Shown here piece by piece: positions 4,336 through 63,115 of a DNA stretch of 64,000 nt. The notes beneath the pieces are model-generated. The model was not told the origin of the DNA, made no database searches, and saw nothing but the letters and a program-made list of their open reading frames with translations. Numbering within the stretch: the stretch's first letter is position 1; every line of letters starts with the position of its first letter. Source of the DNA: Minisyncoccota bacterium (lineage in GTDB: Bacteria; Patescibacteriota; Minisyncoccia; Phycocordibacterales; XYD1-FULL-46-19); assembly GCA_040879645.1 (NCBI GenBank), contig JBBDJY010000006.1, positions 94,240 to 158,239 of the forward strand. The letters run 5' to 3'. The position numbers were made by a program, and so were the translations under genes.

Positions 4336-4522
4336 TCGCTTCCTTTCGTTTGCAAACAAAGAACTGACTGGATAGACATTAATATAATTTATTAAACCTG
4401 TCAAATTTTTAAATTTTTCGCCAAAACAGTTGATAAGTTTTTTGGTTTTTAAATTAAAAACAGTGTATGATGTAAGTGATAAACTTTTTAATATTAAAGT
4501 TAGCATTTAAACAAATAGTCCT

Positions 4523-9436: not shown

Positions 9437-10435
9437 TTAATTGACGATATTTGTTTGGTGGCCGCTTATAAACTCTTGGATATTACGGAGGGTTATCTCG
9501 CGAATTTCGGCTTTGGCTTCCGCTGTATTAAAAGCGATATGGGGTGTGACGATGACTTGGGGTAAATCCAATAATTCGTGGTCGGCCAAGAGAGCTTTAT
9601 AATCTTCAATCGGCGTGGCGTCATTTAAAAGCAAAGACAATTCGTCATTGAGATGTTCTTCGCCTTCCAAAACATCCAAACCGGCACCCCGGATCCGGCC
9701 ATCTTTAAGGCCCTTAAGTAAGGCGGTGGTTTCAATCAGTCCACCACGGGCGGTATTAATGATAATACTGCCGGGTTTACATTGGGAAATGTTGCCTTGG
9801 TTTAAAATGTGGCGGGTGCCGTCATTTAGAGGTAAATGGAGAGAAATAATATCAGCTTGAGCTAGCAGTTCGTTAAGATCCAAATAAGTCACACCGGTTT
9901 CGTTAATCAATTCTTGATTGGGGTGCAAGTCGCTGGCGATAACCTTCATCGCAAAGCCTCGGGCGATCCGGATGACATTGGCGCCGATATGGCCGGTGCC
10001 GATGACACCGATGGTTTTGCCGTTTAAGTCAAAACCCTCGTAGATTTTCCGATCGGTTTGACCTTCACGCCGAAGGACCTCATAGGCCTCGTTAACCTGA
10101 CGGTTTAAAGCAAAAATCAAAGCAAAAGCAAATTCGGCCACCGTCCGGGCGCCGTAAGTCGGGACATTGCAAACGGCGATATTGCGTTTTCGGGCTTCAA
10201 TCGTATCAATATGGTCAAAGCCGGTGGAACGGGTGGTAATGAGGGAAACTTTAGGTAATTTATCCAAAGTTTCGGCGGTGATCTCCGAATCAATAAACAC
10301 TGAGATAATATCGGCGTCGGAGACCGGGGCTTCGGCCGGTCGGGCCTCGTCAAAAAAGACAACTTCGTGCTCGGCCCTTAATTGGCCGAATAATTCTTTA
10401 TCTTTTTCACTGGCGCTGTAAATGGCAATCTTCAT
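9437..10435 (-). CDS. NAD-dependent D-isomer-specific 2-hydroxyacid dehydrogenase (glycerate dehydrogenase / hydroxypyruvate reductase / D-lactate dehydrogenase type).
   Basis: GVIGTGHIGANVIRIARGFAMKVIASD matches the GxGxxG(17)D pattern. The catalytic R...E...H is seen in TARGGL, DVLEGEE and TPHIAF. Confidence 0.8.
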   Translation of the reverse strand: MKIAIYSASEKDKELFGQLRAEHEVVFFDEARPAEAPVSDADIISVFIDSEITAETLDKLPKVSLITTRSTGFDHIDTIEARKRNIAVCNVPTYGARTVAEFAFALIFALNRQVNEAYEVLRREGQTDRKIYEGFDLNGKTIGVIGTGHIGANVIRIARGFAMKVIASDLHPNQELINETGVTYLDLNELLAQADIISLHLPLNDGTRHILNQGNISQCKPGSIIINTARGGLIETTALLKGLKDGRIRGAGLDVLEGEEHLNDELSLLLNDATPIEDYKALLADHELLDLPQVIVTPHIAFNTAEAKAEIREITLRNIQEFISGHQTNIVN

Positions 10436-10540: not shown

Positions 10541-10600
10541 TTACAACCATTGAGGTTAAACCTCCAGATTATTGAGGTTAAACCTCAATATCAGTTAGGA
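10541..10600. repeat. Two tandem copies of the palindromic repeat TTGAGGTTAAACCTC in a divergent intergenic region.
   Basis: The sequence ttgaggttaaacctccagattattgaggttaaacctcaatatc is seen directly. Confidence 0.8.
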
Positions 10601-10628
10601 GAGGCCAATCGGCGGGGGATATGCTAGT

Positions 10629-11603
10629 ATGGGCTTAATGGCTTTTGTTGATGAATTAACGATTATCGCTCGGGCGGGCGACGGCGGCGACGGCGTGGTC
10701 CGTTTTCGGCATGAAAAAAATCGCGAATTTGGCGGTCCGTCCGGCGGCGATGGCGGCCGAGGTGGTAATGTTTATATCAAAGCGGTCCGCGATGTCCATT
10801 TATTGGCCCGTTATCGAGCTCAAAAGGAATTCGTCGCCGACCGGGGCGAGGCTGGTAAAAAAGACGGTTTGACCGGGGCCGGTGGAGCGGATTTGGATAT
10901 TTTATTACCGGTCGGTTCAGTGGTTACCAATCGAGCAACCAATGAGCAATTTCGTTTGAGTCAAGAAGGTGAACGCCATTTACTGTTGGCCGGTGGCGAC
11001 GGTGGCCGGGGTAATGAGTCATTTAAGAGTTCGACCAATCAGGCTCCCCGGGAACGAACCACCGGCGAGCCGGGTGCGAGCGGCGAATTCTTTATTGAAG
11101 TGGAATTAATTGCCGATATTGGTTTAATCGGTTTACCAAGTGCCGGCAAATCTTCCTTACTTAATGCTTTAACCAAGGCTGAAGTCAGAGTCGGTGATTA
11201 TCCTTTTACCACTTTAGAGCCGAATTTGGGCGAATGTTATGGTTTTATTATCGCCGATATTCCGGGCCTGATTGAGGGCGCGGCCGATGGTCGGGGCTTG
11301 GGTCATAAATTCTTGCGTCATGTTCGCCGGACCAAGTTACTGGTGCATCTGGTTTCGGCTGAGGGGAATGACTTGGTCGGTGATTATCAAACTATTCGCC
11401 GAGAATTGGCGCGATTTGATGAAAATTTGCTGACGAAAAAAGAAATTATTGTTTTGACCAAGACTGATTTATTACCGGATCAAAAAACGATAGCGGCGGC
11501 CGTCGATAAGCTAAAAAAACTCAATCCGCAAGTGGAAGCCATTTCTTTATTGGCTGATGACTCGATCAAAAAACTGCGGGAAAAACTACTGACGTTGGTT
11601 TAA
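10629..11603 (+). CDS. obg: GTPase Obg/CgtA.
   Basis: Gly-rich Obg fold N-terminus (GDGGDGVVRF, GGDGGRGG) and the G-domain motif GLPSAGKSSLL. Confidence 0.85.
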   Translation: MGLMAFVDELTIIARAGDGGDGVVRFRHEKNREFGGPSGGDGGRGGNVYIKAVRDVHLLARYRAQKEFVADRGEAGKKDGLTGAGGADLDILLPVGSVVTNRATNEQFRLSQEGERHLLLAGGDGGRGNESFKSSTNQAPRERTTGEPGASGEFFIEVELIADIGLIGLPSAGKSSLLNALTKAEVRVGDYPFTTLEPNLGECYGFIIADIPGLIEGAADGRGLGHKFLRHVRRTKLLVHLVSAEGNDLVGDYQTIRRELARFDENLLTKKEIIVLTKTDLLPDQKTIAAAVDKLKKLNPQVEAISLLADDSIKKLREKLLTLV

Positions 11604-11764
11604 GATTAAGTTTTGACCTCAATCTTCTTTGTTAATTATTTGTCGGGAATGCTATAATAAAAAAGTGAAAACTTTCTACTTGGGCCATAAAAAGAAAATC
11701 ATTTATTGACCGAAGCCTAGAAATTAAACTTTTCAGTTTCCAATCGGGATTATATAATAATCTT

Positions 11765-12277
11765 ATGAGTAATACCATCAAAGCTTATCATGCGGCCGTA
11801 TTTTTTTGGGTTTCTGTTTTCTGGGCACTTTTCTGGGTAATTCGTTGGGGGTTATGGCAACTATCTTGGGCCATTCCAATAGACTACCAACATGTGTTCG
11901 ATATGTTTTTTAGGCCCTGGCCTTTCATTATTATTATCAGTATTCTGCTGGTTTTGTTAAAAATAATCTGGGTAAAACAATGGTCACCGATTCAATACCG
12001 GACCAGAGGGCTTACAATTACCTTCTCGTTTTCTTTGATCGCTTCATTATTTTTTATGATTCATATGTTTATGAGCGATGAATGGGAGGCTTTTTACTTC
12101 CTTTCCTTTCTTTTCCTTCACGTCCCAATATTAATAATATCCGGAGTCTTGCTTTTTGCCACAATCAAGGGCTGTTCGCCCACAGTGGCTTTCATTAGGT
12201 TCGTCCAAGTGGTTATTATCTTTTTTGTTCTTTTAACCTTCTTGATTTTGCTTTTGTCTTTACTTTCATCGCTTTAA
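11765..12277 (+). CDS. Hydrophobic membrane protein of unknown function.
   Basis: 170 aa with multiple transmembrane helices. TATAAT lies 6 nt before the ATG, a leaderless-like arrangement. Confidence 0.5.
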   Translation: MSNTIKAYHAAVFFWVSVFWALFWVIRWGLWQLSWAIPIDYQHVFDMFFRPWPFIIIISILLVLLKIIWVKQWSPIQYRTRGLTITFSFSLIASLFFMIHMFMSDEWEAFYFLSFLFLHVPILIISGVLLFATIKGCSPTVAFIRFVQVVIIFFVLLTFLILLLSLLSSL

Positions 12278-12395
12278 ACGGGATAAAAAATAATCCGGTT
12301 ATCGGTAATTATAATAGAATACGCGTAGCGCTTTCCTCGCGGCTCTGCCGCGATGACCACTAAGAAAAGTATGAAAACCGTTGGTTTTCATTATA

Positions 12396-12512
12396 AATCT
12401 CAATACCGAGGTTAAACCTCGGTATTGAAGAATAATCCTTGTTTTTTGAATATGGAGATATGGAGGTTTAACCTCGGTCTGGTATGGAGGTTTAACCTCG
12501 GTCTGGTAATTT
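12396..12512. repeat. Three copies of the CCGAGGTTAAACCTCGG palindromic family (one 27-bp palindrome plus a tandem pair), with additional hairpins nearby.
   Basis: ctcaataccgaggttaaacctcggtattgaag and atggaggtttaacctcggtctggt x2. Confidence 0.8.
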
Positions 12513-12551
12513 TTGCTTTTGAAATTTGACCGGTGGCGGTATAATAAATAA

Positions 12552-12908
12552 ATGGCAGTCAATAAAAAAATGATAATTTTAGGATTGGTTATTATTGGCA
12601 TCATCGGCTGGCTGGTGTTTAATCAGTCGCCAAATTTACCGCCGGCGGAAAGGGAGGCTTTGGTGGCTGATTACTTAAAAGTCAATCTTCGTCAATGGTC
12701 GGCGGTCTCGCCGGTTTGTCGCCAACCTTTTGCCATTTATAATTTGGAATTTACCGATAAAAATGACGGCACGGTTTTTTATGAGGACGGCTACAATGTT
12801 TATTCGGCCGACTTTACTTATCGTCTCGACCGAAACAATCAAGTTGTCATCACTCATTTTGCCGAACCTTTCCCGATTCATTTATCCGGTGAAGTTTGTC
12901 CCGATTAA
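12552..12908 (+). CDS. Small secreted or membrane-anchored hypothetical protein.
   Basis: 118 aa with an N-terminal transmembrane/signal segment. Confidence 0.5.
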   Translation: MAVNKKMIILGLVIIGIIGWLVFNQSPNLPPAEREALVADYLKVNLRQWSAVSPVCRQPFAIYNLEFTDKNDGTVFYEDGYNVYSADFTYRLDRNNQVVITHFAEPFPIHLSGEVCPD

Positions 12909-13022
12909 GTTTGGGCTGATTTTTGTTGTTAAAAGTTCACGGTGTGTATAACTTTAAAGCTTTACTTGGTTTCGAGGGTTATAATGTAGTTATTATTAGT
13001 TGGGGATTATAATAAAAAATAT

Positions 13023-13412
13023 ATGGATTCATCAATATTTCTTTCCCAAATGATCGGCATTTACCTGGTCTTGATCGGCTTGGTCTTTTTGTTCAAGCGC
13101 AAGACTTTAATGCCGGCGATGAAAGAAGTAATCCAAAGCAAGTCACTTCTTTATATCGTGGCCATGCTTGAGTTGGCTGCCGGTATTGCGATTGTCTTAA
13201 ATCACAATATCTGGGCCTGGAGCTCAGAGCTTTTGATTACTCTCTTTGGCTGGCTTTTGATTGTGGAAAGTGCCGCCTATCTCCTCTTGCCTTACAAGCG
13301 GATGGAAAAATTGGCCCTGAAGTTTAATACGCCGGCCTGGTATGGCAGTTGTGGTGCCGGAGCGGTTATTATCGGCGCTTATTTGATTGGCGTCGGTTTC
13401 GGTTTGATTTAA
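13023..13412 (+). CDS. Small membrane protein of unknown function.
   Basis: 129 aa with four hydrophobic helices. Confidence 0.5.
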   Translation: MDSSIFLSQMIGIYLVLIGLVFLFKRKTLMPAMKEVIQSKSLLYIVAMLELAAGIAIVLNHNIWAWSSELLITLFGWLLIVESAAYLLLPYKRMEKLALKFNTPAWYGSCGAGAVIIGAYLIGVGFGLI

Positions 13413-13426
13413 TCTGATTGACTGAA

Positions 13427-13459
13427 TAAAAAAACACCGGCTAAACCGGTGTTTTTTTG
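13427..13459. terminator. Bidirectional rho-independent terminator.
   Basis: aaaaaacaccggctaaaccggtgttttttt, with an A-run before and a T-run after. Confidence 0.8.
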
Positions 13460-13471
13460 GCGATAAGGGAA

Positions 13472-14773
13472 TTATTTCTTGGTGACGATTTTAATCATCT
13501 GTTCCAGTCGGCGAATATCCGCCAAGAGGCGAGAACGATCTTTATTGAATAAGGTGATGTTAAAAATACTTTTACCGCCATGTTTGGCAAAAATTGCTTT
13601 GTCACCGACTTTTTGATTGACGGTAATGGTGTTAAAAGATTTAAGGGTTTGGACTTTTTTAATGCCGGTTAAAGACATAATCCGGCCTTCATCTTTGGCA
13701 AAAATTTTCAGGACGGCAGTATGGCCTTTAACTCGCCGGAAAGGCTTCGGTCGGCGGGGAATACGGATAAAGATATCGTTGGCCGTATGATTGATACCAA
13801 AAGACAATTCATACATTTTTTGCCGGAAACCACCGATGCGTGGCCCGACTTCAATCACTTTCCAACCTTTTTCTGTTTTTAAAAGTTCAATGTGGGCGGT
13901 GATACTACGCAGACCGAGAGCGTGGACGGCCTTTAGACTTACTTCTTCGGCCGCTTTGATACTTTCTTTATTCAAGGTGGTTGGCGTCATTGTTTGATAG
14001 GCAAAAAAGTCATCAAAGCCGACGCTTTTACCGGTTTTAACCGATACCAAGGGGCAAAAATAGACTTTACCGCGAGAATTGACATAACCGTCAACCGAAT
14101 ACATATCGCCGTCAATAAATTGTTCAACCAAGATTTGAGGTTCGCCCCGGCCTTTGGCTTCTTTGTGAATCCGATTAATGCGACGCAGAATTCGTTTGAG
14201 TGATTTTTCCAATTCTTCCTGATGGAAACAAATACTGACCAAGAGTGACGAGGCTAAGCCGGACGGTTTAATTACCAGCGGAAAACCAATCTTTTTATCG
14301 ATTTCTTTCAAGGTAATCTTTTTAGCGTCGGAAACAACCATAAACTTGGGGGTGATTTTTCGGTCATAGACGCGAAAGCGCCGGCGCATGGCCAATTTAT
14401 TGGTTGACCAAGTTAAGGAGTCGCCGGTCGGGGTGCGCAGGTAGGGGATATGAGGAATTATTTTTTGGAAAAAAGGAATCATTGCTTCCGACCGACAAGT
14501 GACGGCCAGTAAGCGGTCGCGGTAAGGAGAGAGGATGTCGGTGATCGATTTTTCCGAATTGGCATCAACCATTAAAATGTCTTCAAAAACCTCCAAACCT
14601 TCTTTATCCCGAATTTGCTCATAGCCCTTACTGTCGGTCAGTAAGAGATATTTGTATTTAACCCCAACCTCTTTATTCATGGTGGCCAGACTGCGGGCCA
14701 CCGCCGGAATGACCGACCCTACCAATAAGATGGTGTCTTTTTTAACCTGATTATTCAAAGGCTTTTTTGTCAT
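13472..14773 (-). CDS. ATP-grasp domain protein (ligase of the D-Ala-D-Ala ligase / carbamoyl-phosphate synthetase fold).
   Basis: 433 aa. HIELLKTEKGWKVIEVGPRIGG and the surrounding pattern are typical of the ATP-grasp C-terminal half. Confidence 0.55.
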   Translation of the reverse strand: MTKKPLNNQVKKDTILLVGSVIPAVARSLATMNKEVGVKYKYLLLTDSKGYEQIRDKEGLEVFEDILMVDANSEKSITDILSPYRDRLLAVTCRSEAMIPFFQKIIPHIPYLRTPTGDSLTWSTNKLAMRRRFRVYDRKITPKFMVVSDAKKITLKEIDKKIGFPLVIKPSGLASSLLVSICFHQEELEKSLKRILRRINRIHKEAKGRGEPQILVEQFIDGDMYSVDGYVNSRGKVYFCPLVSVKTGKSVGFDDFFAYQTMTPTTLNKESIKAAEEVSLKAVHALGLRSITAHIELLKTEKGWKVIEVGPRIGGFRQKMYELSFGINHTANDIFIRIPRRPKPFRRVKGHTAVLKIFAKDEGRIMSLTGIKKVQTLKSFNTITVNQKVGDKAIFAKHGGKSIFNITLFNKDRSRLLADIRRLEQMIKIVTKK

Positions 14774-14947
14774 ATGACTTATTTAGCTTAAAATCAACCG
14801 AACGGACAAATAGTAGCAACCACCAAAAATTTTTCAAGCCGGATATCTCCAGTTGTGTATAACCGCTCTTGACAAAAATGTTTTCTAGTTTTTTGAGCCG
14901 CCGGCGCCAACGACTAGCAGGCGGTTGGAGACTTTTTATGTTAAAAT

Positions 14948-15682
14948 TTGATAATGAATAATACCAAAATTCTTTTGTTTGTTTTATTGATTATTCTTGC
15001 CGCTTCAGCCGGTTTGGCCTATTGGCAGTTATTGGACTCTTTTGGCCGGCAAAATCTGCCGGCCAATCAGTCGCCGGCTCTGGTCTCGATAACGATTGAT
15101 CGGCCAAATTTAATCATCGAAGGCGATTTTTTGGACCGAGTTGAATTATTGGCATTTTTAGCCGGGACGGAATCAGCCGGTGAGCCGGTCGTTTTGGGGG
15201 AAGCTCAATTAACGGGCGAGAATCGCTGGATTTTTCCGATACCGGATCGACCACTGGCGGCTCGACGAATTACCGCTCAAGGATATGCCGATGGGAGGTT
15301 GGTCGGCGAAATTTCTTTGGGGGTAAGCGGTCCCAATGAAATTTACCGGGCCTTATGGTCGGAGGGTGATTCCATTTTACTTACTTTAAATCCCGGCCAA
15401 ACCGGTTCATTTGAAAATCTGCAAATTAAATTTCGCGAAGTCTTGACCGATAACCGTTGTCCGGCTGATAGTCAATGTGTGCCTCCGGGCGAGTTTTCGC
15501 TTCTGGTAACCTTGTTGTCAGAGCGGGAAGAAGAGGAAGTTGTTTTATTTCATGACTCCGACCCTTATGCTTTCACTGATTATCTCGTTTCTCTGATTGA
15601 TATTAAACCGGCCTTTGAAAGCGATCGTGAAATTAGTAATTATCAAATCACTTTTGCCGTCAGTAAAATTAATCAACCATAG
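14948..15682 (+). CDS. Secreted hypothetical protein.
   Basis: 244 aa with the signal/anchor MIMNNTKILLFVLLIILAASAG. Confidence 0.5.
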   Translation: MIMNNTKILLFVLLIILAASAGLAYWQLLDSFGRQNLPANQSPALVSITIDRPNLIIEGDFLDRVELLAFLAGTESAGEPVVLGEAQLTGENRWIFPIPDRPLAARRITAQGYADGRLVGEISLGVSGPNEIYRALWSEGDSILLTLNPGQTGSFENLQIKFREVLTDNRCPADSQCVPPGEFSLLVTLLSEREEEEVVLFHDSDPYAFTDYLVSLIDIKPAFESDREISNYQITFAVSKINQP

Positions 15683-15912
15683 TTTTCCACACATTGGTTG
15701 AAAAAATAAGGAAAAAACGCGCATAAAAGGTATAATTAAAATACCCGGCGTTAAATCCGGATAACCGGGAAATTACTGTTATGACATTCTTGTTTCCGGT
15801 CACAATTCCTTTCTTTTTTTCTGTGCCGGCAAGTAGTTTTTAGTCGCCGTTTTGGTAATGGTTTTCGGTTTTAGTCGGATATTATGCCTAATTCCCGAAT
15901 ATTCAAATTTAA

Positions 15913-17130
15913 ATGAAACCGCGCATTCTTATGTTTGGCTGGGAGTTCCCTCCGCAAAATAGTGGCGGTCTGGGGACGGCTTGTTTTGGTATCTGTAAAG
16001 CGATGGCCAGACAACAAGTGGAGATGATTTTTGTCTTACCGCGCCGGCAACCGGTGGCCGGTAATAATCTGCCGTTGGTTTTTGCCGGTTTGGAGGAGAT
16101 TCGTTTTGAGACGGTCGATACTTTGCTTTACCCTTATGTCACCGATCAGTCTTATGCTGAACATTACCAAGATATTGAACCGGGACCTTACGGCCCAACC
16201 TTATTTGATGAAGTTATAGCCTATGGTAAACGTGCCCGATCGATTGCCCGGAAGCATTCTTTTGATATTATCCACGCTCATGATTGGCTCTCTTTTCCGG
16301 CTGGCCTAGCGGCCAAACGAATTAGCGGTAAACCGCTTATTATCCATGTTCATGCCACTGAATTTGACCGGAGTGGCGGAGCGGGTGTTAATGAAAAAGT
16401 TTATGCCATTGAACGCGAGGGAATGGAACAAGCTGATGGGATTATCGCCATCAGCCATTGGACTAAAAATATTATTATCAAGCATTACGGTATTCCCGAG
16501 GAAAAAATCAGGGTGGTTCATAACGGTATTGATTCTGATGATATTGTTTTAATCCCCGAGTCACTACATCAGCTTAAACGAGTCGGCAAAAAGATGATTC
16601 TTTTTCTTGGTCGAATTACTTTACAAAAAGGCCCGGATTACTTTTTGGCCGCCGCCGCTCGTGTTCTCGAGTTGCGCGACGATGTCTTTTTTGTTGTCGC
16701 CGGTTCCGGCGATATGGAAAGAGCGATGATCCGCCGGGCGGCGGAATTAGGGATTGCCGATCGGGTGCTTTTTGCCGGTTTCCTGCGGGGGGCCGAAGCT
16801 CAAGCGATGTATCAAGCAGCCGATTTATTTGTGATGCCGTCAGTCTCCGAGCCATTTGGTTTGACTCCGCTTGAATCATTGGTCGTCGGTACGCCGGTGT
16901 TAGTCTCCAAACAATCCGGGGTCTCGGAAGTCCTTCATCATGCGATTAAGGCTGATTTTTGGGATATTGATGAAATGACCAATAAGATGGTGGCCTTGTT
17001 GCGCGAACCGGCCTTAAGTAAAACCCTGACGGAAAATGGCCACCGGGAAGCTTTGAGTTTGACTTGGGATCGATCGGTGGCCGGTTATGTTGATTATTAC
17101 AAAACAATATTAAATAAATTAAGAAAATAA
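15913..17130 (+). CDS. GT-B glycosyltransferase, glycogen/starch-synthase-like (GT4/GT5 type).
   Basis: The N-terminus SGGLGTA resembles the KxGGL motif. The C-terminal EPFGLTPLESLVVGTPVLVS is seen, and the gene is followed by GH57 and GH15 genes. Confidence 0.7.
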   Translation: MKPRILMFGWEFPPQNSGGLGTACFGICKAMARQQVEMIFVLPRRQPVAGNNLPLVFAGLEEIRFETVDTLLYPYVTDQSYAEHYQDIEPGPYGPTLFDEVIAYGKRARSIARKHSFDIIHAHDWLSFPAGLAAKRISGKPLIIHVHATEFDRSGGAGVNEKVYAIEREGMEQADGIIAISHWTKNIIIKHYGIPEEKIRVVHNGIDSDDIVLIPESLHQLKRVGKKMILFLGRITLQKGPDYFLAAAARVLELRDDVFFVVAGSGDMERAMIRRAAELGIADRVLFAGFLRGAEAQAMYQAADLFVMPSVSEPFGLTPLESLVVGTPVLVSKQSGVSEVLHHAIKADFWDIDEMTNKMVALLREPALSKTLTENGHREALSLTWDRSVAGYVDYYKTILNKLRK

Positions 17131-17131
17131 T

Positions 17132-18358
17132 ATGGCTTCCGTTTGTTTTTATTTTCAAGTTCACCAGCCTTACCGATTAAAAAAATATCGTATTTTTGAT
17201 ATTGGTCGGGATAATGTTTATTTCAATGATGCTTCCGGTACCAATTTGGATAATAAATGGATTTTTCAAAAAGTGGCGACTAAATGTTATTTGCCAACCA
17301 ATGAAGTTTTACTTGATCTCTTAAACCGTCATCCGGAATTTAAAATCAGTTTTTCTTTATCGGGAGTTTTTTTGGAGCAAGCCGCCGAATATATGCCCCA
17401 AGTGCTTGATTCTTTCAAGCGCTTGATCGATACCGGTCGGGTGGAAATTCTGGGCGAAACTTATTATCATTCGTTGGCTTTTTTACATTCTCGGACGGAG
17501 TGGTTGCGTCAGATTATGCTTCATACTCGGCAGGTAAAAAAATTATTTGGCGTCGAACCGACGACTTTTCGCAATACTGAATTGATTTATAACAATGATA
17601 TCGCTCACATTATCGAGGGCTTGGGTTATCAAGCAATTTTACTGGAGGGAGCCGACCACATTCTTGATTGGCGCAGTCCCAATTTTCTCTATCGGCCGCG
17701 ACGGGGCAGTAAGTTAAAAATGTTGCTGAAAAATTACAAATTGTCGGACGATGTGGCTTTTCGCTTTTCGTCGCGCGATTGGAATGAATGGCCGTTGTCG
17801 GCCGAAAAATTCGCTCACTGGGTTAGTCAGGTCAACGGCAATGGCGAGGTAGTTAACCTGTTTATGGACTATGAGACTTTTGGCGAGCATCAATGGGCCG
17901 ATACCGGCATTTTTGATTTTCTTCGCCACTTGCCGGCCGAATTACTTAAGCATCCGGACAATGATTTTTTGACACCGACGGAAGCGGCCGGCCGTTTTCC
18001 GGCCCGGGGAGTTTTAGATGTTCCGGATTATGTGTCTTGGGCCGATGTTGAACGCGATTTATCAGCTTGGCGGTCCAATGATATGCAATATGACGCGCTT
18101 AATAAAATTTATGCTTTAGAGAAAGACATCATTTCTCTGGGCGATAAAAAATTAATTGATGATTGGCGTCGACTGCAAACTTCCGATCACTTTTATTATA
18201 TGTGCACCAAGTGGTTTAATGACGGCGATGTTCATAAATATTTTAATCCTTACGAATCGCCTTACGATGCCTTTATCACTTTCATGAATGTCTTAAATGA
18301 TTTACAATTAAGATTGAAGCAATTAAAAAATAATTCAGTCGTCACGAATGAACAGTAA
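17132..18358 (+). CDS. Glycoside hydrolase family 57 protein (alpha-amylase / branching enzyme / 4-alpha-glucanotransferase type).
   Basis: The N-terminal motif FQVHQPYRL is seen, in a 408-aa ORF. Confidence 0.7.
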   Translation: MASVCFYFQVHQPYRLKKYRIFDIGRDNVYFNDASGTNLDNKWIFQKVATKCYLPTNEVLLDLLNRHPEFKISFSLSGVFLEQAAEYMPQVLDSFKRLIDTGRVEILGETYYHSLAFLHSRTEWLRQIMLHTRQVKKLFGVEPTTFRNTELIYNNDIAHIIEGLGYQAILLEGADHILDWRSPNFLYRPRRGSKLKMLLKNYKLSDDVAFRFSSRDWNEWPLSAEKFAHWVSQVNGNGEVVNLFMDYETFGEHQWADTGIFDFLRHLPAELLKHPDNDFLTPTEAAGRFPARGVLDVPDYVSWADVERDLSAWRSNDMQYDALNKIYALEKDIISLGDKKLIDDWRRLQTSDHFYYMCTKWFNDGDVHKYFNPYESPYDAFITFMNVLNDLQLRLKQLKNNSVVTNEQ

Positions 18359-20354
18359 ACATCTCATTCTCAAAACTTTAACTCTCGGTAACGGCAACAT
18401 TCTGATTAACTTTGATAAGTTTGGCCAAGTCCGAGATTTTTATTATCCCTATATCGGTTTGGAAAACCATATCGGCAATCATTTACTGCACTCGATCGGT
18501 GTTTATGTTAACGGCGCCCAGTCTTGGCTTAATGACGGTTATTGGCAAATTAAAGTTGATTGCGATTCCGACACTTTCTCCGGCAAATTTACCGCTTTCA
18601 ATGAAGGCCTGGGGATCGAGTTGCGGTTTGTTGATGTTGTTTACAATGAAAAAAACATTTTTATCCGTCGAGCGATTGTCCACAATCATTCCGAAGACGA
18701 GCGGGAGATTAAAGTTTTTTTCTACCAGCAATTTGAGCTTTACGAATCACGGATGGCTCATACCGCTTATTATGACCCCGAACACAAAGCGATTATCCAC
18801 TATCGTAATAAACGAGCCTTTTTAATCGGTGGACAATTGGAAGGTCGGGATTGTTCCGACTTTACCACCGGCGTCTTTGAATCGGATGGCAAAGAGGGGA
18901 GTTATATTGATGTGACCGACGGTCAATTGGCCAAGAATCCGATTGAACACGGCCAAGTTGATTCGGTTATCGCTTTCGCCGCCAATTTCAAACCGGCCGA
19001 AGAAAAATTTCTTTATTACTGGGTCAATGTCGGCTTGTCGGTCGAGGAAGTACGGGAATTGGACAATTATATCAAACATAAAGGAGCCGGCTATTTAATC
19101 AAAACAACTCAAGATTTTTGGCATGCTTGGGTCACCCGTCGGGATTTTTCTTTTTACGGTTTGTCGTCGGAAGTCGTTTCCTTATTTAATAAGTCATTAT
19201 TCTATATTCGAGTCCATGCTGATGTCGATGGCGGGATTATCGCTTCCGGTGATTCCAGTATGCTTCATATGGGCAAGGATACTTATGCTTATGTTTGGCC
19301 ACGCGATGCCGCTTATGCTTGTCGAGCCCTGGACCAAGTTGGCGACTTTAATGTTACCGAGCGTTTTTACCAATTTTGTAATGAGGTGATTACGCCGGAT
19401 GGTTACTTTATGCATAAATACAGCCCGGATAAATCACTGGGCAGTTCTTGGCATGGTTGGTTGCAACCCAATGGTGAATTTCAATTGCCGATTCAAGAAG
19501 ACGAGACGGCGATTGTCTTAATCGTTTTATGGGATCATTACCGTTTGTCTAAAAATCTTGAATTTATTGAAGCTATTTATAATTCCTTGATTAAAAAGGC
19601 GGCTGATTTTATGGTTACTTTTCGTGATGAGGAGATGTTATTGCCCAAGCCTTCTTTCGGTTTATGGGAAGAAAAATTCGGCATTCATACCTACACCGCG
19701 GCGACGGTTTACGGGGCCTTGATTGCCGCCGCCAATTTTTCGCGCCTGTTGGGTAAAACCAAAAGCGAAAATCGTTATATCCGGGCGGCTAAGGAAATTA
19801 AGAGTGGTATTTTGCAGTATTTATACAATACCGATGAAGGAATTTTTTACAAAATGATCAATAAAAATGAAAACGGGGAAATCATTGCCGATCGGACACC
19901 GGATGTTTCTACTTTTTTCGGCTTATTCAATTTCGGGGTGTTAACCCCTGATGATCCGAAAATGATGGCGGTGGCCGAACAAATGAAGCGGGAGGCGGTG
20001 CCAAAGACCGACTTGGGCGGCTTTTGCCGGTATAAAGATGATCGTTATTATCGTCAGCCGGACAGTCGCCATTGTAATCCGTGGTTTGTGACCACTTTTT
20101 GGTACGCTCAATGGTTGATTGCCAAAGCCAAAAATGAAAAAGATTTGGCGGAGGTTAAAGAAATTTTGGCTTGGTCGGTCCGTTATGCCCAAACTTCCGG
20201 TATTTTATCCGAACAATTGGATGCGTCGAGTGGCCGGCAATTATCGGCCACCCCGCTGGTCTGGAGTCATGCCGAATTTGTTATGACCGTCGTTCAATAC
20301 TTGAATAAATTGGAAGAATTTGGTATTTGCCAAGCGGCCAATCCTATTGATTAG
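18348..20354 (+). CDS. Glycoside hydrolase family 15-like protein (glucoamylase/glucodextranase/trehalase type).
   Basis: WPRDAAY is the GH15 signature. The 668-aa ORF has an N-terminal beta-sandwich plus an (alpha/alpha)6 layout. Confidence 0.7.
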   Translation: MNSKHLILKTLTLGNGNILINFDKFGQVRDFYYPYIGLENHIGNHLLHSIGVYVNGAQSWLNDGYWQIKVDCDSDTFSGKFTAFNEGLGIELRFVDVVYNEKNIFIRRAIVHNHSEDEREIKVFFYQQFELYESRMAHTAYYDPEHKAIIHYRNKRAFLIGGQLEGRDCSDFTTGVFESDGKEGSYIDVTDGQLAKNPIEHGQVDSVIAFAANFKPAEEKFLYYWVNVGLSVEEVRELDNYIKHKGAGYLIKTTQDFWHAWVTRRDFSFYGLSSEVVSLFNKSLFYIRVHADVDGGIIASGDSSMLHMGKDTYAYVWPRDAAYACRALDQVGDFNVTERFYQFCNEVITPDGYFMHKYSPDKSLGSSWHGWLQPNGEFQLPIQEDETAIVLIVLWDHYRLSKNLEFIEAIYNSLIKKAADFMVTFRDEEMLLPKPSFGLWEEKFGIHTYTAATVYGALIAAANFSRLLGKTKSENRYIRAAKEIKSGILQYLYNTDEGIFYKMINKNENGEIIADRTPDVSTFFGLFNFGVLTPDDPKMMAVAEQMKREAVPKTDLGGFCRYKDDRYYRQPDSRHCNPWFVTTFWYAQWLIAKAKNEKDLAEVKEILAWSVRYAQTSGILSEQLDASSGRQLSATPLVWSHAEFVMTVVQYLNKLEEFGICQAANPID

Positions 20355-20418
20355 TCATTGGCGATTTTTGTTTTTGATTGTTATAATAACCGTTATTAAT
20401 AATTAATGTATTGGGACT

Positions 20419-20823
20419 ATGTCTAGCCAAAAACCTTATGTCGGCAACATTCCTGCCGAAACCGTGGATAATAGTAATTTCCGTCAAGTTATTTATACCG
20501 GGCCAAAAAGCCAATTGGTTTTAATGTCGCTTAAACCGGGTGAAGATATCGGAGCAGAAGTTCATCAAGTTGATCAATTTTTCCGGTTTGAAGCGGGTAC
20601 CGGACGAGCAATCGTTGACGGACAAGATTATGAAGTGGTTGATGGCAGCGCTCTTTTGGTGCCGGCCGGCGCTTCGCACAATGTCGAGAATACCGGTTCG
20701 GTCGACTTAAAATTCTATACCCTCTACGCACCGCCTAATCATATTGACGGTCGGATTCATCTGACGAAATCTGAGGCTGAAGCCGATACTGAAGACGAAG
20801 AGTTTGGCCATCGCTCCAGTTAA
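20419..20823 (+). CDS. Cupin-domain protein.
   Basis: 134 aa with a cupin_2-like motif pair (GAEVHQVDQ ... PAGASHNVENTG). Confidence 0.55.
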   Translation: MSSQKPYVGNIPAETVDNSNFRQVIYTGPKSQLVLMSLKPGEDIGAEVHQVDQFFRFEAGTGRAIVDGQDYEVVDGSALLVPAGASHNVENTGSVDLKFYTLYAPPNHIDGRIHLTKSEAEADTEDEEFGHRSS

Positions 20824-20970
20824 AACAAAAAAAGCTCCAAGTGTCAGCCGGTAAGAAGCCGACACTTGGAGCAGGAGCTACAGCATGGGGATGTCGTAGC
20901 TTTTCAACTATATCAGAATAGCAATAAAAAAGCAAGTTTTGGGCTTAATGGTCATTTTTGCTATAATCAA

Positions 20971-22047
20971 ATGATGGAATTTGCTTTAACTATTACTGTT
21001 TCGCTGATTATTGGTGCCGCTTTGGCCGCCTTGCTTGCTTATATTTTCTTGGCCGGCCGTCACTCTAACGGGTCGGCGACCCCGACTGAACCAAATCGGG
21101 ATTTTTTCTTACTGCAAGACCAAATCCGGCAATTAATTAAAACAGTAGATGACAAATTAGGCAGTTCAAATAAAGAGATGCAAGAGGCGGTTCGCCATCA
21201 ATTCGGCGAATCACAAAAATTAATTAGAGATATTACCGAAAAAGTGACTAAAGTTGAGGAATCCAGTCGTCAGGTTTTTACCGTTGCCGAAGCGTTGCAA
21301 AATTTGGAAAAAGTGCTCAAACACCAAAAACAACGGGGTAATCTCGGCGAGGCCGGTTTGGAACTCATTTTAAGTAATGTTTTACCACCAGGGCAATACA
21401 AAATGCAATACGCTTTTCGAGGTGGCGACCAGGTGGATGCGGTGATCATGACCAAGGAAGGGATGATACCGGTAGATGCCAAGTTTTCACTGGATAATTA
21501 CAACCGGATTATCAATGAAAATGATGATAATCGCCGAACGGAATTGGAAAAGATTTTCCGCGATGATTTGAAAAAGCGCATCAACGAAACGGCCAAATAC
21601 ATTCGGCCGGAAGAGGGGACCTTGCCGTTTGCTTTTATGTTTATTCCGGCCGAGGGGATTTATTACGATCTGTTGGTTAATGAAGTCGGAGCGATTAAAA
21701 GCAATACCCGTAGTCTGATTGATTATGCCTATCGGGATAAAAATGTCATTGTCGTTTCGCCGACGACCTTTGCCGCCTATCTCCAGTCGGTTATATATGG
21801 CTTTAGGGCGTTTAAAATTGAGGAAGGGGCCAAAGAAATCCGTCAACGAGTGGGGGAGTTAGGCAAGCATTTGGCCGCTTATGACCAATTTATGGCTAAA
21901 TTGGGCAATTCGCTTGGGACGACGGTTAATCATTACAATACCGCTCACAAGGAATTAAAGAAAATAGACAAAGACGTGGTGCGTATTAATGGCGAGAGCG
22001 CCGGGATTGAACCGGTGGTTTTGGATCGACCCCGAACGGACGACTAG
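20971..22047 (+). CDS. rmuC: DNA recombination protein RmuC. The start was moved to MMEFALT; the listed ORF starts at 20866.
   Basis: N-terminal transmembrane helix, long coiled-coil, and a C-terminal LPFAFMFIPAEGIYYDLL region. A TATAAT box ends 3 nt before the ATG. Confidence 0.65.
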   Translation: MMEFALTITVSLIIGAALAALLAYIFLAGRHSNGSATPTEPNRDFFLLQDQIRQLIKTVDDKLGSSNKEMQEAVRHQFGESQKLIRDITEKVTKVEESSRQVFTVAEALQNLEKVLKHQKQRGNLGEAGLELILSNVLPPGQYKMQYAFRGGDQVDAVIMTKEGMIPVDAKFSLDNYNRIINENDDNRRTELEKIFRDDLKKRINETAKYIRPEEGTLPFAFMFIPAEGIYYDLLVNEVGAIKSNTRSLIDYAYRDKNVIVVSPTTFAAYLQSVIYGFRAFKIEEGAKEIRQRVGELGKHLAAYDQFMAKLGNSLGTTVNHYNTAHKELKKIDKDVVRINGESAGIEPVVLDRPRTDD

Positions 22048-22048
22048 T

Positions 22049-22090
22049 CGTATTTTGTCAAGGTGTCACCTTGACAAAATACTATTCGGT
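22049..22090 (+). terminator. Perfect 16-bp inverted-repeat hairpin after rmuC; a terminator, or possibly a protein-binding site.
   Basis: gtattttgtcaaggtg / tcaccttgacaaaatac. Confidence 0.55.
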
Positions 22091-22147
22091 GGATGAATAA
22101 TCGGTATAATCTTGCCTAAAAGCTCATTTTATGTATAATAATCTTGT

Positions 22148-22480
22148 ATGACATTCGCCATTATTGAAACTGGAGGTAAGCAATACAAGGTCGCCGAAGG
22201 GGAGACCCTGAAGGTGGAAAAATTGCCGGCCCCGGAAAAAGGTCAGACCATCACCTTTGATAAGGTGCTTTTGATTGATGACGGTAAGGAAACCAAAATC
22301 GGTGATCCTTATTTGGCGGGCGTGACGGTTACCGCCGATTGGCTACAAACCGGCCGGAGTAAAAAAGTCACGGTGTTGAAATTCAAGAATAAAATTCGCT
22401 ATAAAAAAGTCTATGGCCACCGCCAACCCTTTACTGAAGTCAAAATTGCCGGTCTAAAAACTAAAACCGCTAAAAATTAA
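22148..22480 (+). CDS. rplU: 50S ribosomal protein L21.
   Basis: MTFAIIETGGKQYKV..., 110 aa. Confidence 0.9.
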   Translation: MTFAIIETGGKQYKVAEGETLKVEKLPAPEKGQTITFDKVLLIDDGKETKIGDPYLAGVTVTADWLQTGRSKKVTVLKFKNKIRYKKVYGHRQPFTEVKIAGLKTKTAKN

Positions 22481-22481
22481 A

Positions 22482-22506
22482 AACCCCGGAAAACCGGGGT
22501 TTTTAA
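22482..22506 (+). terminator. Rho-independent terminator after rplU.
   Basis: ccccggaaaaccgggg followed by ttttt. Confidence 0.85.
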
Positions 22507-22562
22507 TTAGTCCAATACCGAGGTTAAACCTCGGTATTGGAGGTTAAACCTCGGTATTGGAT
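22507..22562. repeat. Two tandem copies of the CCGAGGTTAAACCTCGGTATTGG palindromic repeat.
   Basis: ccaataccgaggttaaacctcggtattgg aggttaaacctcggtattgg. Confidence 0.85.
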
Positions 22563-51476: not shown

Positions 51477-51500
51477 TTTTGTTGGCAATAGCCGACAAAC
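51477..51500. promoter_or_regulatory. 20-bp imperfect palindrome TTGTTGGCAATAGCCGACAA (operator-like), copy B.
   Basis: Identical core at 59810-59829 and 61149-61168. Confidence 0.5.
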
Positions 51501-51592
51501 TGAAATAAAAATCAAGCCAAAATCCCCTTTATTTAAAATGTATTTTCTCCTCCGCAAAAAATTTCTCTGATTCTGTCGGCCGGTGACAACAC

Positions 51593-59807: not shown

Positions 59808-59915
59808 AATTGTTGGCAATAGCCGACAAAATGACTTTGATTTTAGTCAAAAATATCCTTGGTTTGCAATCTTTGCCGGCTAAGAGAGAGAATTTCACCG
59901 GTTTTGTTGGGGCTG
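59808..59915. repeat. Repeated regulatory module of about 110 bp, copy D. It contains the palindrome TTGTTGGCAATAGCCGACAA and a TTGACT box.
   Basis: 64 nt are identical to 61147-61209, followed by a similar tail (..ccgrttttgttgggg..). Confidence 0.8.
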
Positions 59916-59936: not shown

Positions 59937-60485
59937 TTATTTTATATATAGAAAATGTAAAATATGCCAATTTTTGATCTTGTCCTGCCTGGTTAATCCC
60001 TGACCAATATCTTCTGAAGAAAAATAAGGCGGAATGGATAACAATGAGAGTGATTCATCCCGCGAATAAAATGACATTTTTCCTCTTCTTTCCGTCACCC
60101 AGCCATCATTAGGGCCAAATAAAGTAAAATAAAGAAAACCGGATTCGTCCAATGACCGGAAGGCCGTTTTAATTATTCGCGCAATCTCTTGTTTATCGGT
60201 GATAAAAGGTAAAACATTAGCCATTATGATGCCGTCATATTTCTGATTAAAAACAAAATCCTGAATGTTTTTATTTTCAATTCGCCAATAACCATCCTCT
60301 GCTATTTCTTTAAAATTTTTTTGGGCTTGAATCAGCGCTCCCTCGTCTACATCTACTAAAGTTACCTGATATCCGTATTTTAGAAAATCCATTGCTTGCC
60401 GACCATCACCGCCACCCAGGTCAATTAATTGACCGTCAGCTTTTAATAACTTCTCATTTTTTAATTTTTTAAATAAAGGAATCAT
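59937..60485 (-). CDS. Class I SAM-dependent methyltransferase (TehB-like).
   Basis: LIDLGGGDGRQA (motif I), VTLVDVDE, 182 aa. Confidence 0.7.
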   Translation of the reverse strand: MIPLFKKLKNEKLLKADGQLIDLGGGDGRQAMDFLKYGYQVTLVDVDEGALIQAQKNFKEIAEDGYWRIENKNIQDFVFNQKYDGIIMANVLPFITDKQEIARIIKTAFRSLDESGFLYFTLFGPNDGWVTERRGKMSFYSRDESLSLLSIPPYFSSEDIGQGLTRQDKIKNWHILHFLYIK

Positions 60486-61146: not shown

Positions 61147-61255
61147 AATTGTTGGCAATAGCCGACAAAATGACTTTGATTTTAGTCAAAAATATCCTTG
61201 GTTTGCAATATCTTTCGATTTCAGGTGGAAATTTTGCCGATTTTGTTGGGGAGAT
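61147..61255. repeat. Repeated regulatory module of about 110 bp, copy C (palindrome at 61149-61168), lying between divergent genes.
   Basis: See copy D. Confidence 0.8.
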
Positions 61256-63045: not shown

Positions 63046-63115
63046 GCCGCCACCCAGGTCAATCAATTGACCGTCAGCTTTTAATAACTTCTCATTTTTT
63101 AAATAAAGGAATCAT
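63046..63115. repeat. Duplicated fragment of about 70 bp, copying the 5' end and start region of the methyltransferase gene at 60409-60490.
   Basis: gccgccacccaggtcaat(c/t)aattgaccgtcagcttttaataacttctcatttttt...aaataaaggaatcat. Confidence 0.8.

Follow-up and report, generated by a model that had tools for sequence, protein, structure and literature searches.

Short palindromes that are dispersed through bacterial genomes and fold as hairpins in single-stranded DNA (ssDNA) are best known from two groups of systems: the repetitive extragenic palindromes (REPs) and bacterial interspersed mosaic elements (BIMEs) of Escherichia coli, Stenotrophomonas and Marinomonas, which together with the transposase TnpA-REP (REP-associated tyrosine transposase, RAYT) constitute the 'REPtron', and the pairs of RAYTs with REP doublets forming hairpins (REPINs) in Pseudomonas. 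In these systems, doublets that form one long hairpin are common (PMC3337134, PMC6006769), the gene for the Y1 HUH enzyme (with HuH and Y...NP motifs) is flanked by hairpins that are cognate to it, and each lineage of the transposase is paired with a hairpin type of its own. A guide tetranucleotide, GTAG/GTGG or CGTC, is located at the 5' foot of the REP hairpin (PMC6006769, PMC8266576), and the enzymes that have been studied to date require this head (PMC8266576). Here we analyze a 64,000-nucleotide stretch of DNA (the window: positions 94,240 to 158,239 of contig JBBDJY010000006.1, assembly GCA_040879645.1) from a Minisyncoccota bacterium of the phylum Patescibacteriota, in which an original prediction, made from the letters alone, had noticed a family of intergenic palindromes. 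These systems share several features with the palindromes of the window, and we put at roughly 80% the probability that the latter are non-autonomous REP/REPIN-like hairpin elements belonging to a large Patescibacterial family that is tied to a class 2 (RAYT-type) Y1 HUH transposase.

The window contains seven exact copies of the 13-bp palindrome GAGGTTWAACCTC, all of them intergenic (Table 1). The original prediction placed all seven correctly but gave the core as GAGGTT-WAA-AACCTC, which has to be corrected to GAGGTT-W-AACCTC. This number is far above chance: a search that allowed up to two mismatches retrieved the same seven sites, compared with a mean of 1.3 in shuffled controls, none of which (0 of 100) reached seven. 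When the centre base was freed as well, a single extra weak site appeared in the entire 64 kb (41383), and because the relaxed searches add only this site, decayed copies of the core are absent from the window. The tandem pairs and extended palindromes that had been described are there: doublets, with start-to-start spacings of 22, 24 and 20 bp, occupy three of the four loci, and there are two extended forms, of 29 bp (TCAATACCGAGGTTAAACCTCGGTATTGA, 12400-12428) and 31 bp (22511-22541). All three doublets are direct tandem duplications in which the centre base is identical within the pair, and the units at 12459-12482 and 12483-12506 show 100% identity (repeat family D3). Applied to the window, a scan for the more general pattern xAGG-N5-CCTx recovered, alongside the seven known copies, an eighth hairpin with the same architecture and another core, which the original prediction had overlooked.

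The flanks of the core vary from copy to copy and yet prolong the palindrome around it. Given that the flanks vary but keep the palindrome, the conserved entity is, on comparison of the copies, the hairpin and not the duplex sequence. The family architecture consists of an upper stem xAGG/CCTx' around five central bases and a lower stem that is variable provided that pairing is kept; in the window, it is realized in a main dialect, G-AGG-TTWAA-CCT-C, and a second one, A-AGG-TGTCA-CCT-T. Altogether, the window has eight hairpins of 13-33 bp, and the hairpins of the family, folded as ssDNA, reach z scores of -4 to -10. When doublets from other genomes are oriented by the centre base, the sole asymmetric base of the core, 82 are inverted and 16 are direct. 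Inverted doublets fold into one long perfect ssDNA hairpin (those of locus L092, for example, pair perfectly), and the direct doublets of the window fold likewise with one A.A or T.T mismatch (predicted folding energy, dG, -9.5 to -21.9 kcal/mol, z -4 to -9). One doublet (L095) has C and G centres, which shows that the centre base is not fixed. The palindromic 6-1-6 form of the core and the doublet spacing of about two helical turns would also suit duplex binding sites for a conserved dimeric protein of Patescibacteria, which might be a global transcription factor or might function in the nucleoid or in segregation. However, the covariation of the variable flanks, which keeps the hairpin, speaks against such sites, and in other dialects the five central bases lack self-complementarity, which argues for an ssDNA hairpin.

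In a collection that represents each species by a single genome (596 Gb), pairs of cores 4-20 nt apart were found at 94 loci in 49 species-representative assemblies, where about 0.02 matches are expected by chance according to our own estimate. These motif-seeded loci were examined as 8-kb pieces; together with the window, they contain 217 cores with a W centre. The identical core is thus present in genomes other than its source, and the concern that the repeats might be a local coincidence can be set aside. Of the 49 assemblies, 37 are labelled as Patescibacteria, 4 as unspecified 'bacterium' and 8 as members of other phyla; among the 37, the same 13-nt core occurs in Saccharibacteria, Paceibacterota and Yanofsky-, Kaiser-, Campbell-, Lipton-, Sung-, Jorgensen- and Daviesbacteria. 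The nearest relatives of the Obg protein encoded in the window are at most 69% identical to it. The hairpin family is spread over the ultra-small Patescibacteria (candidate phyla radiation, CPR), and we found no description of it in the literature: in full-text searches, which do not cover all journals, there was no paper with the motif string and none that joins RAYT or REPIN to Patescibacteria. Doublets were also observed in metagenome-assembled genomes (MAGs) labelled Gammaproteobacteria, Bathyarchaeia, Prevotellaceae, Bacteroidetes, Spirochaetes, Omnitrophota, Planctomycetia and Saprospirales (L011, L019, L022, L024, L029, L052, L042, L057, L079, L075, L093), which are either mis-binned CPR contigs or signs of a genuinely wider distribution. 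In the Spirochaetes-labelled MAG, the core falls within a 15-bp unit that is repeated in tandem in the coding sequence of a tetratricopeptide repeat protein and encodes (EVKPQ)n.

In some genomes, the doublet is embedded in longer, genome-specific repeats: one of ~160 bp is present in at least 16 copies in H51-bin228_1 (JBBTVI01; L027-L094), and in a Campbellbacteria MAG (PCTS01 loci) the doublet is at the centre of a repeat of 110-230 bp. Several doublets are located at contig ends, which suggests that the repeats break assemblies. The doublet pattern had no matches in 2.9 million viral contigs, and a phage origin was accordingly rejected.

Among the neighbours of the cores is a family that Pfam identifies as Y1_Tnp (IS200-like transposase), with homologues in 7 of the 94 motif-seeded loci. 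The Y1 gene is beside or between cores in L023, L092, L031 and L034 and more distant in L072, L010 and L076. It lies between two doublets in L092, is surrounded by eight cores in L023, one of these in frame within the gene (4444-4456), has the motif on both sides in L034, and has it on one side in L031, where a doublet follows 193 nt downstream. The proteins, of ~220-230 amino acids, share the motifs YH.YNRG, LM.NH.H (the HUH motif) and Y...NP, the last of which is the signature of class 2 (REP-associated) Y1 enzymes and not of class 1 IS200 enzymes, which have Y....Q (PMC6006769). The only NCBIfam match of these proteins is the REP-associated tyrosine transposase model NF047646, at 22-67 bits and thus far under the curated cut-off of 80 bits, which sets them apart from known RAYTs. 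An AlphaFold2 (AF2) model of the protein (predicted local distance difference test, pLDDT, 92.3) has as its best fold match in PDB the structure 4ER8, in which the E. coli RAYT is in complex with a REP hairpin (E 3e-5, template modelling score 0.65 on the target), followed by the TnpA proteins of IS608 and ISDra2. A profile search against PDB sequences gave only marginal matches to ISDra2 TnpA (E 0.12), so that 4ER8 is visible by fold search only. The Y1 family comprises at least 1182 protein clusters, and some homologues have been named RayT by the Joint Genome Institute.

As an independent test, metagenome contigs were searched with the alignment of the Y1 proteins and not with the motif, and the best 80 of 486 relatives were kept. 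The exact core GAGGTTNAACCTC is present in only 5 of these 80 loci, whereas 56 have a perfect xAGG-N5-CCTx' hairpin with further paired bases within -200 to +300 nt of the gene; hairpins are found on both sides of the gene in 34 of the 68 loci that could be evaluated. Hairpins are concentrated around the genes, with 98 in 41.8 kb of adjacent sequence compared with 9 in 201 kb at distances of more than 1 kb. The cores vary among the loci (AAGGTTCAACCTT, AAGGCGAGGCCTT, TAGGCAAGACCTA, GAGGCGACGCCTC and many others), forming 'dialects', and related transposases tend toward related cores. The core of the eighth hairpin of the window, AAGGTGTCACCTT, flanks RAYT-like genes in L104 and L130. Taken together with the dispersal of the core through many genomes and the bracketing of Y1 genes in motif-seeded loci, the adjacent hairpins of the homologues support the suggestion, made originally among others, that the palindromes are REP-like elements or targets of a REP-associated transposase.

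The same data bear on a different assignment within the Y1 superfamily. Insertion sequences of the IS200/IS605 type (IS608, ISDra2) and their miniature derivatives likewise depend on a Y1 HUH transposase that acts on ssDNA and recognizes subterminal hairpins, and the palindromes could be the ends of a true multi-copy element of this type, in which case singlets and doublets would be solo ends or derivatives resembling miniature inverted-repeat transposable elements, and there would be no domesticated single-copy RAYT with REPs. The clade with the core GAGGTTSAACCTC (L169-L176) has this appearance: here the gene is tightly bracketed by hairpins, 15-40 nt upstream and 5-15 nt downstream, mostly in the same orientation, in a compact hairpin-gene-hairpin unit resembling the left and right ends of IS200. 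Many homologues are on contigs of 1-2 kb, as is common for repeated elements, the doublets of the window are direct, and the next-best fold matches are to IS200/IS605 enzymes. A hairpin is present on each side of the gene in 35 loci when no minimum length of flank is imposed; the upstream and downstream cores are the reverse complement of each other in 19 of these, match exactly in 10, differ by up to two mismatches in 5 and are dissimilar in 1, so that inverted hairpins outnumber those in the same orientation, which is a departure from IS200/IS605. Furthermore, the tyrosine motif is that of class 2 (PMC6006769), the best fold match and the sole NCBIfam match are to RAYT, several doublets flank the genes in L092 and L023 as they do in the case of RAYTs, two identical copies of the gene were never seen among the 8-kb genome pieces, and no TnpB partner was seen. 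Given this balance, we consider an IS200/IS605 origin possible, and hold it only tentatively.

Genes of the GAGGTTSAACCTC clade contain one or two conserved in-frame copies of the core. The RAYT-like genes with the GAGGTT-N-AACCTC dialect (L169-L176 and L023) carry their own cores in frame at conserved sites, one encoding EVEP/EVQP near residue 66 and the other GSTS near residue 164. REP insertions within the tnpA-REP gene itself have been described for TnpA-Y1 subclasses 2.4 and 2.8 (PMC6006769), to which the Patescibacterial Y1 genes are similar in this respect. Y1 genes flanked by non-canonical structures that are copied elsewhere in the genome are also known, in subclass 2.6 (Bacteroidetes) and class 3 (PMC6006769), but these come from other phyla and have other structures (a CnGA foot in class 3), and spread in frame into housekeeping genes is unreported there (PMC6006769).

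Such spread is seen in the Patescibacterial elements, which, in contrast to REPs, are not strictly extragenic. Of the 110 core clusters in the 94 loci, 65 are outside open reading frames (ORFs), 10 are in short doubtful ORFs and 35 (32%) are in ORFs of at least 200 amino acids; given that such ORFs make up 68% of the sequence, the copies are depleted in genes, yet far from excluded. The host ORFs that were checked encode GMP synthase (GuaA), TsaD, tRNA-guanine transglycosylase, enolase, topoisomerase I (TopA), the alpha subunit of DNA polymerase III (DnaE) and Mfd. At 34 long-ORF sites, the core is always in stop-free frames and encodes the peptides EVKP, GLTS or R(F/L)NL. Alignment to solved structures shows that the doublet corresponds to 15 extra residues in TsaD and 12 in GuaA; in TsaD, the AF2 model (mean pLDDT 88.9) shows the insert as a loop that lacks structure and has a pLDDT of less than 50, and the length of this loop ranges from ~6 to 35 residues among 120 homologues. 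In TsaD proteins that are 79-81% identical, the same site is found in different states: it contains a doublet of the main dialect of the window (dialect 1) in L040 and L097, is occupied in L179 by a doublet that belongs to a different dialect (dialect 2; AAGGACTCTCCTT followed by AAGGAAAGTCCTT), and is short and empty in L181. More generally, this loop, which in TsaD separates GGPEISKLA from KLPRP, is a hot spot of in-frame palindromic insertion in Patescibacteria, with at least three palindrome types (L040, L097, L030, L095, L179, L180, L181).

In-frame insertion of palindromes is reminiscent of the Rickettsia palindromic elements (RPEs), which Ogata and colleagues reportedly described in 2000 as palindromic repeats inserted in frame in essential genes of a host-dependent bacterium with a reduced genome. 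The likeness is one of behaviour only, that is, the insertion of a palindrome that adds a peptide in a tolerated loop, predicted to be disordered in the case of TsaD. RPEs are 100-150 bp long and confined to Rickettsia and its relatives, and no transposase is known for them, whereas the Patescibacterial elements are doublets of 30-46 bp that are built on a core of 13 nt and have a candidate transposase of the Y1 type. The RPEs are reviewed in PMC10969869.

The distribution of the copies among and within genes also permits us to evaluate regulatory readings. Intergenic copies are located between co-directional genes in 38 cases, convergent genes in 10 and divergent genes in 9, with no preference for promoter or terminator positions. 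All-against-all clustering of 505 neighbouring ORFs revealed no recurrent neighbour gene except for the Y1 family and ordinary housekeeping genes, and a conserved neighbour gene or regulon was therefore rejected. The duplex-site explanation introduced above, of which the originally proposed sites of a global regulator would be one form, can draw on the exact conservation of the core across classes and within orthologous genes and on the fact that some copies are located in promoter regions, including the ones that precede obg and the ORF at 12552. Nevertheless, with about a third of the doublets inserted in frame in long housekeeping ORFs, with neither a gene-pair preference nor a recurring neighbour family, and with the strong link to a Y1 transposase, we regard it as very unlikely. 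By contrast, genome-specific longer repeats, the absence of a recurrent neighbour, depletion in ORFs and the filled and empty states of the TsaD site are what mobile or selfish elements typically show.

A short, exactly conserved motif that occurs in genic and intergenic positions, often in inverted pairs, is also what would be expected of a DNA uptake sequence maintained by biased uptake in natural transformation. CPR bacteria possess competence genes, and several of the host genes (TopA, DnaE, Mfd) function in genome maintenance. However, uptake sequences occur about once per kb, whereas the density here is low, given that the 64-kb window has 7 copies, which are confined to 12 kb, and that an 8-kb locus usually has only one cluster; the intragenic copies are insertions and not products of point mutation; and the dialects, of which there are many, exclude one another and are each linked to a transposase of their own. 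This explanation is accordingly hardly credible. A parS-like site was rejected on the grounds of density, the evidence of insertion and the link to a transposase.

By analogy with the TnpA-REP enzymes of E. coli, Stenotrophomonas and Marinomonas and with IS608 (PMC3337134, PMC8266576, PMC6006769), the REP/REPIN-like elements may be envisaged to work as follows. A transposase encoded elsewhere in the genome would bind the folded hairpin on ssDNA, probably at replication forks, read the apical stem and loop, cut nearby with its catalytic tyrosine and rejoin the strand, so that single hairpins or doublets would be copied or moved in trans. The doublet, which is probably the mobile unit, may be the remnant of a hairpin-gene-hairpin unit after loss of the gene. 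The copies in the window would most likely be passive passengers in permissive intergenic DNA; its three doublets would have arisen through local tandem duplication, and any effects on transcript ends or stability would be incidental.

Several observations weigh against this interpretation. First, classical REPs are species-specific (PMC6006769), whereas the 13-nt core of the Patescibacterial hairpins is identical over many classes. Second, a GTAG/GTGG/CGTC-type tetranucleotide is not conserved at the foot of the stem in 231 distinct copies, whether aligned in a fixed register or relative to the stem end; unlike REPs, the Patescibacterial hairpins thus have no 5' GTAG/GTGG guide, their conserved part is the apical stem with the loop and not the foot, and their stems are perfect where the E. 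coli REP has a bulge. Third, all doublets of the window are direct, compared with 84% inverted elsewhere. Fourth, the transposase gene that is flanked by the core on both sides in L023, L092 and L034 and on one side in L031, is missing here: none was detected in the 64-kb window by tblastn (E<=0.01) and none among the 40 of its 64 ORFs that were scanned with Pfam. The copies in the window would therefore either be acted on in trans or be relics. Fifth, all 26 core bases are unchanged between orthologous TsaD insertions in proteins that are only 48% identical, which could mean selection for a host function instead of selfish spread. Likewise, none of the 26 core bases has changed in three orthologous doublet pairs, for which the overall nucleotide identity is 79%, 80% and 61%, and the spacer has diverged in two of the three.

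Candidates to account for this invariance of the core inside diverged genes are selection, enzyme-driven conversion and repeated insertion at a hot spot. A bolder possibility is an old, vertically persistent partnership of the hairpins with the Y1 enzyme across Patescibacteria on which the host now depends; the cores, even in tsaD, would be held by selection or by enzyme-driven conversion, and the doublets would have a genome-wide function, for example, marking sites of ssDNA processing in replication or tuning expression and protein loops. We consider such dependence rather unlikely.

The loci of the window in which the REP/REPIN-like hairpins are found are summarized in Table 1.

Table 1. 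Hairpin elements in the 64-kb window and their predicted folds as ssDNA
Feature	Coordinates	Strand	Structure	Fold as ssDNA
direct doublet	10549..10590	.	cores 10552-10564 and 10574-10586; unit 22 bp	long hairpin interrupted by one A.A mismatch; dG -12.4 kcal/mol, z -5.8
single hairpin TCAATACCGAGGTTAAACCTCGGTATTGA	12400..12428	.	perfect 29-bp palindrome; core 12408-12420	dG -13.5 kcal/mol, z -8.6
direct doublet	12459..12506	.	two 24-bp units TATGGAGGTTTAACCTCGGTCTGG; cores 12463-12475 and 12487-12499	
eighth hairpin GTATTTTGTCAAGGTGTCACCTTGACAAAATAC	22050..22082	.	perfect 33-bp palindrome; core AAGGTGTCACCTT, second dialect	
direct doublet	22511..22559	.	31-bp palindrome (core 22520-22532), then second 20-bp unit GAGGTTAAACCTCGGTATTG (core 22540-22552)	dG -21.9 kcal/mol, z -9.0

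The genomic contexts that had been reported, a divergent ldh-like/obg region and a position after the rplU terminator, are confirmed by the neighbouring genes. The locus at 10541-10600 is between a 2-hydroxyacid dehydrogenase gene (9437-10435, minus strand) and the divergent obg (10629-11603, plus strand). The locus at 12396-12512 is within a 274-nt gap upstream of an ORF of 118 amino acids (12552-12908), with the doublet 46 nt 5' of that ORF. The eighth hairpin sits between rmuC (end 22047) and rplU (start 22148), and the locus at 22507-22562 between the convergent genes rplU (end 22480) and recR (end 22593), past a terminator-like hairpin of rplU. All five loci are inside 12.1 kb of the 64 kb, for which a rough calculation of our own gives p ~0.005 under uniform placement; an adjoining Logan contig that extends ~2.5 kb beyond the window has no hairpin.

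These contexts raise the question of whether the hairpins are kept for a role at the RNA level, as terminators, stabilizers of mRNA 3' ends or protein-bound stem-loops. The predicted hairpins are indeed very stable, the doublet at 22511-22559 is located between convergent genes, the singlet at 12400-12428 scores as terminator-like on the minus strand, and classical REPs stabilize upstream mRNA (PMC3337134). Against this, the copies have no U tracts, rplU has a canonical terminator hairpin of its own (22481-22505), and many copies are in coding regions or upstream of genes; moreover, neither the association with a transposase nor the filled and empty sites would be explained. An RNA-level role as the reason for the existence of the family is therefore improbable, and co-option of some copies for such a role may be compatible with REP/REPIN-like elements.

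Other repeat identities were rejected on anatomy or by reasoning. The statement in the original prediction that these are not clustered regularly interspaced short palindromic repeats (CRISPR) holds, given that the loci are dispersed, with at most two to four adjacent copies separated by 2-20 nt, and have no cas genes nearby. Tandem interspaced guide RNA (TIGR) arrays, which are characterized by box C/D motifs and adjacent tas genes (PMC12045711), were rejected on the same anatomy, with no tas genes nearby. The GTT-N-AAC of the core trivially matches the R-box consensus of integron attC sites, but attC was rejected by reasoning, given the wrong length and the absence of cassette arrays and of an integrase.

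REP/RAYT systems have been studied almost only in Proteobacteria, and Patescibacteria are outside the published surveys that were searchable here. If the proposed relationship is correct, the smallest and most streamlined bacterial genomes carry diversified hairpin repeats served by an ssDNA transposase, and the simple grammar xAGG-N5-CCTx with its many dialects would provide a natural system in which to study how HUH enzymes read hairpins without a GTAG guide. In-frame entry into essential genes would be one source of the extra loops that are frequent in CPR proteins, and the elements would also cause assemblies to break and alignments to mislead. Given that their hairpin targets are short and predictable, the Y1 enzymes would be of interest as ssDNA tools as well.

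Neither Rfam families nor tRNAs were detected across the whole window. The gap at 12278-12551 (274 nt) contains, in addition to the palindromes, a GC-rich stretch at ~12322-12360 and a minus-strand terminator-like hairpin at 12371-12391, with no Rfam match, and a small unannotated transcript is possible there. The window also contains direct repeats unrelated to the hairpins, namely, a 105-nt repeat in three copies (51477-51581, 59808-59912 and 61147-61251, the last two 85% identical), a pair of 56-nt repeats (60409-60464 and 63047-63102) with 98% identity, and three copies (47264, 51403 and 61072) of a 26-nt motif, 'TCACCTCCTTTC...', which is the reverse complement of a ribosome-binding region. 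These repeats probably mark shared 5' regions of paralogous genes.

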